Virus record (IMG/VR): IMGVR_UViG_3300028608_000011
Coordinates: 1-64,000 of that record
Direction: 5' to 3' (one strand)
DNA: 64,000 bases
Origin: a virus
Notes under the pieces: model-generated
What the model was told of the DNA's origin: nothing
Database searches by the model: none
Seen by the model: the letters and a program-made list of their open reading frames with translations, nothing else
In this document: piece by piece, positions 3,936 through 8,924 of the stretch
How positions within the stretch are numbered: position 1 is the stretch's first letter
How the letters are laid out: each line of letters opens with the position of its first letter
Program-made: the position numbers and the translations under genes

Positions 3936-4397
3936 ATGACCTTCTACCCTACGATCACCATCCCGCCGGCCGTTGACACCATGGCCCGCGAACTAGCCGA
4001 GCAGGACGCAGCCCAGCGCTCCAACGTCGACACCGGCACCCTGCAGGACTGCGTGGATCGCCACGACCAGCAGACCCAGCCCTTCACCCTCAATCTCAGC
4101 GAGAACGGCGTGACCTGCGGCATCGGCCTGCGCATCGACCCAGACCAGGCCAAGTACGCCACGACCCGCCTGAAGATGACCCTGCACAGCGTGACCCCGC
4201 TCGAGACCAGCGCCGACGATCCGCTCACCCGGTGCACCTTCGGCGCGGTGTACTCGCCCAACCCCACCGAGGAAGACGGCGTCTATGGCAAGTACACCCC
4301 GTATGGACAGCTGACCTACAACGTGCGCAGCGACATCGCCGCCAACCTGATCCAGGGCCGCGCTTACTACATTGACATCTGCCTGGCTGACCTCTAA
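3936..4397 (+). CDS. hypothetical protein (153 aa) with beta-rich C-terminal domain
   Basis: SD AGGA then ATG at 3936; C-terminal motifs KYTPYG and GRAYYIDI. Confidence 0.75.
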   Translation: MTFYPTITIPPAVDTMARELAEQDAAQRSNVDTGTLQDCVDRHDQQTQPFTLNLSENGVTCGIGLRIDPDQAKYATTRLKMTLHSVTPLETSADDPLTRCTFGAVYSPNPTEEDGVYGKYTPYGQLTYNVRSDIAANLIQGRAYYIDICLADL

Positions 4398-4400
4398 TCT
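4372..4400 (+). promoter_or_regulatory. sigma70 promoter embedded in the 3' end of the gene
   Basis: TTGACA-17-TAATCT. Confidence 0.7.
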
Positions 4401-4406
4401 GCGCCG

Positions 4407-4486
4407 TGTGAGCTTTGGCAGGCACACAAACAGAATGCTCGACCCCGTGACCTCAAGGATTAGTCCTCCTTGAGGTCTTTTTCTTT
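4407..4486 (+). ncRNA. candidate ~80-nt small RNA
   Basis: bounded by the promoter at 4372-4400 and a terminator; GTGTG/CACAC hairpin and A-rich linker; no credible ORF. Confidence 0.4.
4449..4486 (+). terminator. Rho-independent terminator
   Basis: GACCTCAAGGA/TCCTTGAGGTC 11-bp stem followed by a T-tract. Confidence 0.8.
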
Positions 4487-4517
4487 CTGGACTATCCTCC
4501 GCTCGCCAATCAGCGAG
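4470..4517 (+). promoter_or_regulatory. sigma70-type promoter with the palindromic motif over +1
   Basis: TTGAGG-17-TATCCT followed by CTCGCCAATCAGCGAG (4502-4517). Confidence 0.45.
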
Positions 4518-4527
4518 AAATCCCTAC

Positions 4528-4689
4528 ATGGATGTCCAAGAAGCAATACTCATCGTGGCCTACGGCATCGTCGCCTGGCTGCCCACCCTCGACTACACCG
4601 ACTTTGCCGCCTTCGCCGTGTGTTTCTTCACCGGGTACTGGCTGCGAGGACGGGAAAAACGGAAGAAGACCAATGAGCCAGAGAACTGA
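4528..4689 (+). CDS. small membrane protein (53 aa; not in the ORF track)
   Basis: MDVQEAILIVAYGIVAWLPTLDYTDFAAFAVCFFTGYWLRGREKRKKTNEPEN; two hydrophobic segments, basic tail, GC3-rich codons. Confidence 0.6.
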   Translation: MDVQEAILIVAYGIVAWLPTLDYTDFAAFAVCFFTGYWLRGREKRKKTNEPEN

Positions 4690-5236
4690 TCACATGCCCG
4701 CGCAGCCGGTGGTAGGCCGAATAGTGCTGGGCACTGATACGCAGGGGCGCACCTACGCAGCCGGGCTTGGCGTAAGCCTGGAAGACTTGAAACACAGTGG
4801 TATGCAGATCGCCGCTGCCATCGCCGACACCCCGCTTGGGGGAGATCTGGCACAGTCAGTGCGCCTGTCAGACGACCAGATTGGGCCAACCCCGCCGGAG
4901 GATGTGTACCGTTTCCTCCAGGTCACCAAGCGCAAGGCCGACCAGCTGGAAGAGACTTACACCGAGCTGCTGCTCGAGTCCGGCGGCTACGATGAGGTCA
5001 ACCAGCGCCACCTCAGCCTGGCGCGCGATCACTTCGAGACGGCGCTGATGTTCTTGAAGCGGGCGCTGCACGGGATCAAGGTGGAAGAGCCGGCGATGAT
5101 CGGTGCCAATGGCCAGCTGACCGAGTACGGGCGCAAGCACGCCACCATCACCTCAGCCATGATCTGTGACGCGAAGATCGCTGACCCCGTTTCGCAGATC
5201 TCGGATCGCCAAATTGATGTTGACGATTGCAAGTAA
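4673..5236 (+). CDS. protein containing an Acb2/Tad1-like helical hairpin domain (candidate cyclic-nucleotide sponge)
   Basis: TKRKADQLEE ... RHLSLARDHFETALMFLKRAL resembles the Acb2/Tad1 hairpin signature; start re-assigned to ATG 4673. Confidence 0.55.
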   Translation: MSQRTDHMPAQPVVGRIVLGTDTQGRTYAAGLGVSLEDLKHSGMQIAAAIADTPLGGDLAQSVRLSDDQIGPTPPEDVYRFLQVTKRKADQLEETYTELLLESGGYDEVNQRHLSLARDHFETALMFLKRALHGIKVEEPAMIGANGQLTEYGRKHATITSAMICDAKIADPVSQISDRQIDVDDCK

Positions 5237-5253
5237 CCTCGCTAATCTGCGGG
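5220..5253 (+). promoter_or_regulatory. sigma70 promoter for the tRNA/sRNA transcript, overlapped by the palindromic motif
   Basis: TTGACG-17-TAATCT; CTCGCTAATCTGCGGG at 5238-5253. Confidence 0.7.
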
Positions 5254-5293
5254 CTACTCCAAGGCGGTGCGGCGAGTGAGCAGGACGGTTTCG

Positions 5294-5311
5294 TGAGACA
5301 AGGATGTCTCA
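5294..5311 (+). promoter_or_regulatory. CsrA/RsmA-binding hairpin
   Basis: TGAGACA-AGGA-TGTCTCA contains ACAAGGAUGU with GGA in the loop. Confidence 0.6.
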
Positions 5312-5320
5312 ACAGGTTTC

Positions 5321-5399
5321 AGAGGGTTCGCCAAGTCTGGCCAAAGGCATCGGGTTTTGATCCCGACATTCCAAGGTTCGAATCCTTGACCCTCTTCCA
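5321..5399 (+). tRNA. tRNA-Gln(UUG)
   Basis: acceptor AGAGGGT/ACCCTCT, D arm GCC..GGC, anticodon arm TCGGG-TTTTGAT-CCCGA, T arm CAAGG-TTCGAAT-CCTTG, encoded CCA. Confidence 0.92.
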
Positions 5400-5402
5400 G
5401 CA

Positions 5403-5482
5403 GTTCCGGGTGAAAGCGTCAGCCATTGCGCAGGGCTTAGGCCCAACAAGCCGGAGATGAAATGGCACCGGCGCCCGGACTC
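5403..5482 (+). ncRNA. candidate C4/IsrK-like structured small RNA
   Basis: closing stem TCCGGGTG/CGCCCGGA with internal hairpins GGGC-TTAG-GCCC and GCCGG-AGATGAAATGGCA-CCGGC. Confidence 0.4.
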
Positions 5483-5489
5483 GATGTAC

Positions 5490-5522
5490 AGAAAGCCCCG
5501 TCATCGCACGGGGCTTTCTTTT
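5490..5522 (+). terminator. Rho-independent terminator
   Basis: AGAAAGCCCCG/CGGGGCTTTCT stem followed by Ts. Confidence 0.85.
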
Positions 5523-5670
5523 GCCCGAAAACCCCGCTAATCTCCGAGTTAAGTCGGCCCGTGACCCAGTGTACCTCGTCCACGATAGACCCACGGATAA
5601 CGGCCAACGTGTGCTGTAACGGGGCAAGAAGCCCTCGCCGACGCCTACTTCAACGAACGGATTCCAGACC

Positions 5671-5961
5671 ATGCCAAGTGCCAACGCCAACATCCAAGAC
5701 CTGATCACGCTGGTGTCTCGCAACTGCGATATCACCAAAGCGGAGGCCAAGGTCTACATCGAAGCGACCCTGCAAGGGATTGTCCAGCTCGCCACCGACC
5801 GTGACAAACTGACCCTGCGCGAGTTCGGCCGATTCGAGATGCGCCACCACAAGGCCCGGATCAACAGCAAACCGATCCAGGGCGCGCCGGTGGTGATCCC
5901 GAGCCGCGAGCTGCTGCACTTCACCCCGTCGAAGCTGCTGGCCGTGGAGGTTGATTACTGA
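5671..5961 (+). CDS. HU/IHF family DNA-binding protein
   Basis: 96 aa; LTLREFGRFE...ARIN...IPSRELLHFTPSKLL fits the HU/IHF signature. Confidence 0.85.
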   Translation: MPSANANIQDLITLVSRNCDITKAEAKVYIEATLQGIVQLATDRDKLTLREFGRFEMRHHKARINSKPIQGAPVVIPSRELLHFTPSKLLAVEVDY

Positions 5962-6578
5962 TGGCTGCTCGAATCACACCCCCACAGCTGACTGTCGGCC
6001 CGGGCGATCCAGGCTGGGATGCACCGGAAGAAGAGATGGCGCCGGACAGCGCGCACCCGGACAACTATCGGCCGATGGCCAGGCCTATTGAGGTGACCAA
6101 CCTGGCTTCGCTGAAGTGGGCTGACCGTGAGGCGTTCGACGCCATTGAGTTGATCTGCACCCAGCTGAAATACGACATGCTGCCGGAGGAGATCCAGCTG
6201 CACATCATCGAGTCCATGTCGGCGAGCACAAAGCGCGCACTGGTCTCGCAGATGGCTGGGCTGGATGCCTCGGTGCTGGTGACGTTCAAGCAGCAGCTGG
6301 CGCTGATCGACGCGGTGTGCGCGCGCGTGGTGAGCCCAGACGGTACGCCGAAGAACAACCACGGTCTGGACATCGGCGTGAAGGACGCGCTGAATATGTC
6401 CATGAAGGTGATCAGCATGCTGGTCAAGGATCTGCCGAAGGTCATCACCCTGGCGCGCGTGCAGCGGCTGGAGATGAGCCTGATGAAGGTTGTCGAGTCG
6501 CTGCCACGCGACAAACAGGACGAGGTGCTTCTGCTCCTCGAGGAAGAAGAACGCAAGGCCGTGAGGGAAGCGAAATGA
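5961..6578 (+). CDS. putative terminase small subunit
   Basis: helical 205-aa protein upstream of TerL; function by position only. Confidence 0.45.
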   Translation: MAARITPPQLTVGPGDPGWDAPEEEMAPDSAHPDNYRPMARPIEVTNLASLKWADREAFDAIELICTQLKYDMLPEEIQLHIIESMSASTKRALVSQMAGLDASVLVTFKQQLALIDAVCARVVSPDGTPKNNHGLDIGVKDALNMSMKVISMLVKDLPKVITLARVQRLEMSLMKVVESLPRDKQDEVLLLLEEEERKAVREAK

Positions 6579-7129
6579 AAAGCCTGCGGTGGAACCCTTT
6601 TGCGATGTGGTCTGATCACTGCGCTCTGGTTGAGCGTCTGGCAAAGCTGGAAGACCAGGTTGAGCGGCTGGAGAAGGCCGCGCTCGACCACGCCACCATT
6701 ACCAGCCACGAACTGTTCAAACTGAAGAACCCATGGTACGGCTCTACTGTCGAGAAACCACTGACTCCAGAGCAGGAAGATATTGTCAAAATCTTCATGG
6801 AAAACAGAAAGTTACCCGAAGAAATTCGACGTGGTTTTGCCTCTGGTGGGTACTTCAATCGGAAGGCGGAAGGTCGGTTCGGCGAGGTGCCGTCGGAGCA
6901 GGTGCGCGCGACTGATGCGCAGTACGACGGCACGCCTTACGCGGTGTGCAACACTCCCGATGGGGAGCTGCCAGACGTCAGCTTTGAGGATTTGCGAAAG
7001 GCCATAAGTGAGATCTCGGCGCCGCGGCCGTACCCGGGGCATTCCTTCCGCCACCCTCAGCTGGAGCTGCCTCGACGCGCTAACCTATCCGGCATCCGCG
7101 ATCCCCAGCCACCGCGCCGACCACAGTAA
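6575..7129 (+). CDS. hypothetical protein (184 aa)
   Basis: ATGA overlap with the upstream gene; start MKSLRWNP. Confidence 0.65.
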   Translation: MKSLRWNPFAMWSDHCALVERLAKLEDQVERLEKAALDHATITSHELFKLKNPWYGSTVEKPLTPEQEDIVKIFMENRKLPEEIRRGFASGGYFNRKAEGRFGEVPSEQVRATDAQYDGTPYAVCNTPDGELPDVSFEDLRKAISEISAPRPYPGHSFRHPQLELPRRANLSGIRDPQPPRRPQ

Positions 7130-7139
7130 GGAGCAACAC

Positions 7140-8924
7140 TTGAGCAACCATGGATCGGTAGCAGAACGGTTCCGCATGGCCCTCAGCCGCGAAGAGGGCA
7201 TGAAGGAACTGGATCAGACCATCTTGAAGTACGGGTATGTCGAGGGAGAGCCTTTCTCCTTCGACGACCACGAATTCCAGATCGAGATCGTGCGCGATAC
7301 TTCGCAGCGCATCGACGTGCGCAAGTGCTCGCAGGTCGGGCTGACCGAGATGATGGTGCAGAAGACCCTGGCGATCCTCGCGGTGATGAAGAACATCCGG
7401 GTGATGTTCAGCCAGCCGACCAAGGAGATGGCCGGCAAGTTCTCCAAAGACCGGATCGATGGCGCGGTGGAGCAGAGCGAGTTCTACTCGGGGCTGGTGA
7501 AGGCCGGCTCCGACGCCGCGGGCATGAAAAAGATCGGCCGCAATTTCCTCTACATCATCGGCACCTACGGCGCCAACTCGGCGATTTCCGTACCGGCCGA
7601 GATGATCATCTCCGACGAAACCGACTTCTCCAACGAGGTAGTCCTCGGCAAGCTGAACTCCCGTATCCGTCACGCCAAGACCGTCGATGAGCAGGGCAAC
7701 CGAGGCTACCGCTACCGGTTCTCGACACCGACAGTGGACGGCTTCGGTATCGACGTGGGCTTCCAGGCCGGCGATCAGCGCTACTACATGTGCAAGTGCG
7801 AGCACTGCGAGACTTGGGTCAACCCAACCTTCCTAGAGGACATGATCCTGCCCGGCTGGGACAAGTCGCTGCTGGAGTTCGGCCGGGACAATCTCGACGA
7901 TGAGCGAATTGACATCCAGTCGGCATGGATGCGCTGCCCATCCTGTCACAAGGATCTGTGGCCATCGCTGGTGAACCCGGCGCGGCGCCAGTGGGTGGCG
8001 AAGAAGCCTGACAACTGGAACCACAGCTACCAGGTCAACCCGTGGGACGTGCCCAAGTACAACACGCCGCCGAACATCTTCGCGCAGTTCGAGGCCTACC
8101 CGCTCAAGTCCGACTTCTTCAACTTCGTACTGGGGCTGCCGTTCTCCGACGCCGAGAACAGCTTCATCGTCACCAACGAGCACCGGGCCAAGACCTGTGA
8201 CGTTGACCTGTGGATCTTCAACCAGTGCATCATCCCGTGCGGCACCGTCGGCGGGATGGACGTCGGCAAGATCCTGCACTTTGTGGTGAAGGTGAAAGTG
8301 CCTGGCGGTTGGCATGTGGTGTGGATGGAGAAGATCGCCAACACCAAGAGCGACCCGGCCTTCGAAAAGGTGCTTGAGCGCTACGACTTTTTCAACATGC
8401 GCAAGCTGTGCATCGACGCCGGCCCCGACATCACGCTGGTGAACATGCTGGTGATGGCGCGCAGCGGCATTCAGGCCGTGGTCTACGTCAGCAACCTGCA
8501 AGGCTTCCTGCCCATCGTCGAGAAGACCGAGGGCGAGGTGATCAACGCTGACCGGACGAAGACCCTGACCCTGCTGCTGAACCAGCACAACTCCGGGGAA
8601 TGCCACTACCCGCACCGGGATGACTTGAAGATCGAGCTGTTCAAGCACCTGGAGACCACCAAGAAAGTGCGCGAGCGCGGGATTGACGGCAACATCACCG
8701 AGAAATTCATCAAGACCGACAAGCAGGATCACTGGGTGCACGCGCTGAACTACGCGAACATCGCGGCGATCGCCTGCGAGCAGTTCGAGGATCACAGCGT
8801 GGTCGGCGTGCTGCCAGGCACTGCTGCGGTGCGGATGGGCAGCGCGGTGAAGGAAAAGACTGAGCATGTCGAGCCAAGCCCTATTCTTGTCGGGATGTTC
8901 GGGTTTGCTGGTAGACGCAGATAA
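7140..8924 (+). CDS. terL: terminase large subunit (lambda GpA-like)
   Basis: TTG start after SD AAGGAG; Walker A RKCSQVGLTE, Walker B IISDE, FSTPT motif, two CxxC pairs, GMDVG nuclease motif, DHWVHA. Confidence 0.9.
   Translation: MSNHGSVAERFRMALSREEGMKELDQTILKYGYVEGEPFSFDDHEFQIEIVRDTSQRIDVRKCSQVGLTEMMVQKTLAILAVMKNIRVMFSQPTKEMAGKFSKDRIDGAVEQSEFYSGLVKAGSDAAGMKKIGRNFLYIIGTYGANSAISVPAEMIISDETDFSNEVVLGKLNSRIRHAKTVDEQGNRGYRYRFSTPTVDGFGIDVGFQAGDQRYYMCKCEHCETWVNPTFLEDMILPGWDKSLLEFGRDNLDDERIDIQSAWMRCPSCHKDLWPSLVNPARRQWVAKKPDNWNHSYQVNPWDVPKYNTPPNIFAQFEAYPLKSDFFNFVLGLPFSDAENSFIVTNEHRAKTCDVDLWIFNQCIIPCGTVGGMDVGKILHFVVKVKVPGGWHVVWMEKIANTKSDPAFEKVLERYDFFNMRKLCIDAGPDITLVNMLVMARSGIQAVVYVSNLQGFLPIVEKTEGEVINADRTKTLTLLLNQHNSGECHYPHRDDLKIELFKHLETTKKVRERGIDGNITEKFIKTDKQDHWVHALNYANIAAIACEQFEDHSVVGVLPGTAAVRMGSAVKEKTEHVEPSPILVGMFGFAGRRR

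Follow-up and report, generated by a model that had tools for sequence, protein, structure and literature searches.

Does the short leader in front of a phage tRNA gene have a role of its own? The question is raised by a locus of an uncultured soil phage, in which the stretch between a promoter and a tRNA-Gln gene contains a hairpin that presents GGA in its loop, in the manner of a binding site for host proteins of the Csr/Rsm family. These proteins govern a large share of the Pseudomonas translational programme, including secondary metabolism, motility and biofilm, and in some genera CRISPR-Cas. In the open literature we found no phage-encoded RNA decoy of Csr/Rsm proteins and no phage RNA targeting them. 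We ask here whether the hairpin is a conserved RNA element, how closely it follows the rules for Rsm sites, and whether the leader might act as a decoy. The DNA analyzed, referred to as the window, is the first 64 kb of the 84-kb IMG/VR virus record IMGVR_UViG_3300028608_000011, which has a completeness of 96%.

The tRNA-Gln operon and its phage relatives

By its sequence, the window comes from an uncultured phage of soil that groups with Lana, PMBT3 and UAntarctica among the Pseudomonas phages, and these three are the cultured relatives returned by DNA and protein searches. Additional uncultured contigs were recovered with a profile of the conserved 205-aa neighbor gene. The comparison set consists of ten tRNA-bearing loci: the window, Lana (L014), PMBT3 (L017), UAntarctica and six uncultured contigs. 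Covariation was computed on these ten, with about 35 further relatives, known as proteins, left aside. The ten operons carry from one to four tRNAs at this position, and one neighboring protein is 46-82% identical among the loci. The Lana (NC_048166) tRNA-Gln(UUG) gene is unannotated in its record and is identified by ARAGORN and Rfam (55.8 bits) at L002:2276-2349, which corresponds to L014:2310-2383. The window sequence is also present in soil metagenome runs, and contigs from four of them carry the leader hairpin unchanged; the two small differences, at 5263 and 5270, fall elsewhere. Searching metagenomes with the HU-like protein brought up distant HU/IHF genes only (~30% identity) and no relatives. 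Most genes in this phage group have no known function. A CsrA-family gene (PF02599) is absent from the phage, and a search for a T4 RegB-like nuclease (PF10715), run without a positive control, gave no match in it. The components of the operon are listed in Table 1.

Table 1. Features of the tRNA-Gln operon and of the genes downstream, in window coordinates.
Feature	Coordinates	Strand	Basis or remark
sigma-70-type promoter TTGACG-17-TAATCT	-35, 5220-5225; 17-nt spacer; -10, 5243-5248	+	read directly; conserved in relatives
predicted 5' leader, ~65 nt	5256-5320	+	transcription predicted to start 7-8 nt past the -10; leader ends at the RNase P cut that would form the tRNA 5' end
CAGGACG, possible weak second GGA site	5281-5287	+	read directly
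hairpin TGAGACA-AGGA-TGTCTCA	5294-5311	+	read directly; fold prediction, covariation, rarity and position
tRNA-Gln, anticodon UUG, CCA encoded	5321-5399	+	ARAGORN; Rfam RF00005, 55 bits
3' trailer, 94 nt	5400-5493	+	two further GGA, both predicted mostly paired
likely intrinsic terminator, G+C-rich stem AAAGCCCCG...CGGGGCTTT then T run	~5494-5523	+	read directly
HU/IHF-like DNA-binding protein gene	5671-5961		next gene after the tRNA unit; PF00216, 58 bits
large terminase gene	7008-8924		downstream of the HU-like gene

The promoter that the original prediction placed at 5220-5248 is present, and the same element, TTGACN-17-TAAnnT, lies ahead of the first tRNA in all ten loci, with a spacer of 18 nt in UAntarctica. 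In the window, the stop codon of the upstream ORF (4532-5236) falls within the promoter, and the G+C-rich discriminator behind it, GCGGGCT, appears to resemble that of stable-RNA promoters. A generic promoter scan did not call the 5220-5248 promoter because TAATCT matches the consensus at only three of six positions; we regard the promoter as supported because it is conserved across all ten loci. It is reasonable to infer that the leader is transcribed from this promoter and cut off by RNase P. A stem equivalent to the terminator, together with TTTCTTTT, is found in all of the relatives, and the stem at ~5494-5523 was not listed by a generic terminator scan. The conserved promoter and terminator suggest that the leader is co-transcribed with the tRNA. 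Directly after tRNA-Gln, the window has a module of ~38 nt (5400-5437), CAGAGTTCCAGGTTGAAAGCGCAAGCCAGTGCGCAGGG-like and common to L013, PMBT3 and L023, which includes a small hairpin, GCGCA-AGCCAG-TGCGC.

Across the 84-kb genome the promoter pattern occurs only at 4372 and 5220, each time with a G+C-rich discriminator after it. The former, TTGACA-17-TAATCT followed by GCGCCG (window 4372-4487), is the one further promoter of this kind in the genome, and a strong terminator (4449-4477 plus a T run) lies ~80 nt after it. This 4372-4487 unit may be a small RNA or the attenuated leader of the ORF that starts at 4532. We note that the same ORF, which contains the tRNA promoter at its 3' end, weakly matches the Acb2/Tad1 hairpin domain (PF24729, residues 133-178, 25.5 bits against a cut-off of 27).

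There are further structured RNAs nearby. The 5' UTR of the HU-like gene (5544-5673) is a conserved multi-helix RNA with an outer helix, GUCGGC/GCCGAC, and three inner hairpins, some of them covarying; an invariant single-stranded A(C/U)GGAUUC (5657-5664) lies 9 nt before the AUG, and the UTR is preceded by CCCCGCTAATCT, which has the same -10 block as the tRNA promoter and no -35 element. In the tRNA-less relatives L019 (4528-4553) and L020 (4197-4222), a hairpin, GUAAC-AAGGA(A/U)-GUUAC, places a gene's Shine-Dalgarno sequence in an ANGGAX loop, and its layout, with the start codon 7-8 nt after GGA, is that of classical Rsm-repressed mRNAs. The HU-gene leaders of L019 and L020 also contain a hairpin, GGCAGC-AAGGAUC-GCUGCC.

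A hairpin conserved ahead of the tRNA

The perfect 7-bp hairpin described in the original prediction is found in the leader as TGAGACA (5294-5300), AGGA (5301-5304) and TGTCTCA (5305-5311), and both the upstream CAGGACG and the tRNA-Gln after the leader are likewise where they had been placed. The loop GGA has a predicted unpaired probability of 1.0. The structure can also be read as a hexaloop, A5300-A-G-G-A-U5305, closed by C5299-G5306 and standing on five more pairs. As a whole, the leader folds no more stably than its shuffles (z = -0.19).

The minimum-energy fold of each leader has a hairpin shortly before the tRNA, and in eight of the nine relatives it keeps a GGA loop on a stem that is mostly different. 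L013 has the same hairpin as the window; the others are GGGCCA-AGGA-TGGCCC in Lana, GACCC-AAGGAA-GGGTC in L015, GAGCA-AGGA-TGCTC in L016, GGGAC-ACGGAA-GTCCC in PMBT3, GGTGTTTCA-AGGA-TGAGACACC in L018, GTCCA-AGGA-TGGAC in L023 and GGAGA-TGGA-TCTCC in UAntarctica. In the ninth, L021, the leader hairpin reads GAGAGC-AAGGG-GCTCTC, and a consensus hairpin, GACCA-AGGA-TGGTC, lies 9 nt ahead of tRNA-Met. The PMBT3 trailer contains a second copy, and a strict ANGGAN hairpin is present inside the tRNA operon of every tRNA-bearing relative.

Strict S-[ANGGAN]-S hairpins with a stem of at least 4 bp number four on both strands of the 84-kb genome, against 6.7 +/- 2.6 in shuffles, so one such hairpin somewhere in the window is unremarkable. 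What is not explained by chance is the placement of the hairpin and its conservation. The leader copy has the longest stem of the four. An alignment-free scan for GGA loops of 4-6 nt on stems of at least 5 bp finds hairpins in nine of the ten leaders (603 nt in total), against a background in the same loci of 0.57 per kb, an enrichment of ~26-fold. When the window is searched with a covariance model built from the hairpin, the leader copy ranks first at 28 bits and the next match scores 13.3 bits; outside the training set the model also matches the PMBT3 trailer copy (20.5 bits), the L021 spacer copy (18.5 bits) and the hairpin in L019 and L020.

In an alignment anchored on the hairpins, 80% of cells are paired, as against 56% in shuffles, and four stem pairs show changes on both sides (14 cells, against 4.7 in shuffles). 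The covariation score is 0.60, against 0.16 in shuffles; none of 500 shuffles reached it, and registers slid along the alignment gave at most 0.23. These pair counts rest on hairpins picked by eye before the alignment was made, and for this reason the unbiased support comes from the alignment-free scans and not from the pair counts alone. Whole-leader alignment of the ten loci with MAFFT followed by RNAalifold aligned poorly and gave no consensus structure. Stem covariation in relatives with the loop GGA retained had been put forward as a check on the original prediction, and this is the pattern observed, with the loop A and the closing C-G pair also kept. Taken together, the comparisons support the hairpin as a conserved RNA element.

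Across the ten hairpins, the first A and the GG of the loop are invariant, the third position of GGA is A in nine, N is A, C or U, and X is U or A; the closing pair below the loop is C-G in eight and G-C in one. The functional loop is an A-N-G-G-A-X hexaloop and not an AGGA tetraloop, because the flanking A.A cannot pair in L015 and PMBT3. From RsmE-RNA structures, Duss et al. derived the rule that affinity is highest when an ANGGAX hexaloop sits immediately on top of a stem; recognition is specific for both adenines and for GG, N and X are looped out and not constrained in sequence, and the loop adenines stack on a C-G closing pair (PMC4005645). The consensus Rsm/CsrA site claimed for the window holds up against this rule: ACAAGGAUGU is an ANGGAX hexaloop placed directly on its stem, with GGA predicted to be unpaired (PMC4005645). 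The pattern of conservation also agrees with it, in that A, GGA and the closing pair are kept and N, X and the lower stem are free. Binding of the leader hairpin by an Rsm-family protein in vivo is, on this match, a realistic prospect at a little under even odds.

The distance from the hairpin to the tRNA 5' end is 3-29 nt in all ten loci, counting the L021 copy before tRNA-Met, and the distance from the predicted 5' end of the transcript varies from 10 to 40 nt. Because this latter distance varies and copies occur in spacer and trailer, the hairpin is not a 5'-terminal protective stem. Nor is it a general feature of phage tRNA-Gln genes: four unrelated phages with a similar tRNA-Gln (CRC2, Pokken, Zuri and TPWB-08) have no comparable hairpin just before the tRNA, and tRNA-Gln processing therefore does not require one. 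A DNA-level operator is rejected because the arms covary instead of keeping their sequence. A small ORF from the ATG at 5304 was also discarded, since its AUG abuts GGA and is missing from L015 and PMBT3, and its frame enters the tRNA. Pairing of the loop with the T-arm of the tRNA, which in the window would join CAAGGAU and AUCCUUG, was rejected because L016 and Lana do not keep it.

GGA content of the operon

The leader was originally proposed to be a two-site mimic of RsmY/Z, with CAGGACG as the second site, and this part of the prediction was not supported. CAGGACG is shared only with the closest relative, L013, and in the free leader its GGA is predicted to be mostly paired (unpaired probabilities of 0.07, 0.98 and 0.02). 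Occlusion of a GGA site by pairing lowers affinity the most (PMC4005645). CAGGACG lies 19 nt upstream of the loop GGA, the spacing for dimer bridging being 10-63 nt. Other relatives have a second GGA at different positions. In Lana, L015 and L018 it is inside an outer helix, UCCGG/CCGGA; in L016 the outer helix is UUCGG/CCGAA, such that the helix is kept and the GGA is not. Counts of GGA are also close to expectation. The non-tRNA RNA of the window operon (195 nt) has four, against 4.2 in dinucleotide shuffles, and the ten loci together have 77, against 66 +/- 5 in shuffles, a modest excess (P about 0.02). Sponge sRNAs have about five or more GGA, mostly in loops or single-stranded, and the window leader has two, of which one is in a loop. 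There are no matches to the Rsm/Csr Rfam families in 4800-6000 at E <= 10, and the best site for a GacA/UvrY box (TGTAAG-N6-CTTACA) within ~300 nt upstream has four mismatches. We read the window as probably having one high-affinity site of Rsm type, located in a tRNA leader that would be processed, and not an RsmY/Z-like array.

Some relatives have additional GGA-rich sequence. Lana (L014:2439-2530), L016 (2367-2460) and L023 (2296-2390), otherwise diverged phages, share a nearly identical trailer module of ~90 nt with five GGA: AUGGAAG, AUAGGAAG, CGCC-AGGAU-GGCG, GGCGGAAAA and AAUGGAAC. A terminator follows the module within ~20 nt in Lana and L016, and ~110 nt further on in L023. The module is absent from the window. 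In Lana it has a weak full-length match to RsmY (22 bits, E 0.19, gathering score 57); about half of this score comes from the terminator, and L016, which has the same module, did not score. Across seven loci and 4227 families, only two non-tRNA Rfam matches have E <= 1, the other being a weak ribosomal-leader match elsewhere in L021. We take the Lana match as a hint and not as membership of the RsmY family. In the unrelated phage TPWB-08 (L041:151-400), 11 GGA are present upstream of tRNA-Gln in 270 nt scanned, comprising the 255-nt spacer from tRNA-Asp to tRNA-Gln and the first part of tRNA-Gln; a further structured RNA may lie there.

A possible decoy, rival readings and known systems

The scenario under consideration is that the conserved host-type promoter would drive a short non-coding operon consisting of the ~65-nt leader, tRNA-Gln, the trailer and the terminator. 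The leader hairpin, with its AAGGAU loop closed by C-G, would present a consensus site for the host proteins RsmA, RsmE and RsmI, and selection would keep it because an Rsm dimer binds there. RNase P cleavage at 5320/5321 would then free the leader as a small RNA carrying the site, and the bound Rsm protein could stabilize it. With many phage genome copies and a stable-RNA-type promoter, the leader could become abundant enough to lower the amount of free Rsm protein, and a possible benefit is that Rsm would be relieved from GGA-type ribosome-binding sites on phage mRNAs, such as the ACGGAU before the HU-like gene. It counts against the decoy that tRNA 5' leaders are usually short-lived. Overall, we would put a physiologically relevant sponge effect of the leader at roughly one chance in four. 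The wider reading, in which the non-tRNA parts of these operons throughout the Lana/PMBT3/UAntarctica clade and its soil relatives (leader hairpin, spacer and trailer copies, RsmY-like module) would be RNA antagonists of RsmA and RsmE, is to our mind about as probable.

The main rival to the decoy is action in cis, given that all ten loci place the hairpin 3-29 nt ahead of a tRNA. Here Rsm would bind the same hairpin and govern access of RNase P or RNase E, or precursor stability, so that tRNA supply follows the Gac/Rsm state. A lone strong site in each leader would make a poor sponge and is compatible with cis control, and protection from RNase E by CsrA is known for some transcripts, as in the flhDC case. 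However, the distance to the tRNA varies over that range, the extra PMBT3 copy in the trailer has no tRNA after it, and control of tRNA maturation by CsrA has no precedent known to us, and on balance we consider cis control unlikely. The hairpin could instead be a processing or folding element unrelated to Rsm, which would prevent mispairing between leader and tRNA or mark an endonuclease site. Its conservation near tRNA 5' ends is consistent with such a role, and the outer helix that encloses it in several relatives (UCCGG/CCGGA; UUCGG/CCGAA in L016) suggests a structured leader domain. This explanation nonetheless leaves the invariant A and GG, the free N and X, and the near-invariant C-G pair on changing stems unaccounted for; other phages with a similar tRNA-Gln lack the hairpin, and it is not situated at the 5' end. 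We regard a processing element as doubtful.

The ANGGA loop is also a plain Shine-Dalgarno sequence, and its AAGGA form pairs with UCCUU of the 16S 3' end. The hairpin might thus bind 30S subunits as a STAB-SD-like stabilizer, or be a remnant or mimic of a ribosome-binding site, and in L019 and L020 a hairpin of this shape does serve as a ribosome-binding site, with an ATG 7-8 nt after GGA. Complementarity beyond GGA is, however, not kept (ACGGAA in PMBT3, AUGGAU in UAntarctica), the AUG of the AAGGAUG loops abuts GGA directly and is missing in L015 and PMBT3, and what comes directly after is a tRNA with no conserved ORF; a Shine-Dalgarno look-alike seems improbable. There is a similarly slim chance that the hairpin is the operator of an uncharacterized phage RNA-binding protein, or of another host protein, that prefers a GGA loop. 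Most genes of the phage group lack a known function, and clade-specific conservation would fit a clade-specific partner, but the phage has neither a CsrA-family gene nor a RegB-like nuclease match (the latter search having no positive control), and the match to every Rsm rule would have to be a coincidence.

The decoy reading and its cis counterpart would each be of consequence. If the clade-wide antagonist reading is true, this would be the first virus-encoded RNA decoy of Csr/Rsm made by tRNA processing, and the leaders and spacers of phage tRNA clusters, which usually receive little attention, would gain a function. If Rsm acts in cis instead, phage tRNA supply would be tied to the Gac/Rsm state of the host, which would also be new. 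The presence of a consensus Rsm site in a covarying hairpin of cultured phages (Lana, PMBT3 and UAntarctica) means that simple assays could put the question to a direct test. RsmA is a repressor of CRISPR-Cas in Serratia (PMC8450108). The phages known to manipulate the Rsm network carry rsmA genes (PMC8450108, PMC7366521). A decoy would push in the direction opposite to phage-borne rsmA, which counts against it.

Among known systems, the closest likeness at the level of the site is to the high-affinity target hairpins of RsmE and CsrA, such as the 20-nt ribosome-binding site of hcnA and SL2 of RsmZ, for which the SELEX consensus is RUACARGGAUGU. These have in common with the window an ANGGAX hexaloop on a C-G-closed stem, and the hcnA hairpin, UCACGGAUGA, matches ACAAGGAUGU except for the free N and the next base pair. 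The known targets are located at a ribosome-binding site or in a multi-hairpin sRNA, whereas the site in the window is in a phage tRNA leader. In its manner of working, the leader would be like RsmX, RsmY and RsmZ or CsrB and CsrC, in that a non-coding RNA offers GGA loops to dimers of the CsrA family. These sponges carry from five to eight or more sites, compared with one loop site and two GGA in 65 nt for the window; unlike them, the leader has no Rfam match, no GacA box and no terminator of its own, and would arise by tRNA processing.

A by-product of tRNA-precursor processing acting as a sponge has a precedent in 3'ETS-leuZ of Escherichia coli, which pairs with sRNAs by way of Hfq; the partner proposed in the present case is instead a protein, and the fragment is the 5' leader of a phage tRNA. 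Species 1 and 2 of phage T4 are non-tRNA RNAs that are co-transcribed with phage tRNAs and released by processing. In this they would be like the window leader; their sequences are unrelated to it, and we know of no partner or GGA rule for them. Finally, homologues of CsrA/RsmA are encoded by 30 of 2517 phages, nine of them Pseudomonas phages (PMC7366521). Phages with csrA or rsmA genes add protein to the cell (PMC7366521, PMC8450108), whereas the window phage, which has no csrA, would remove free protein.
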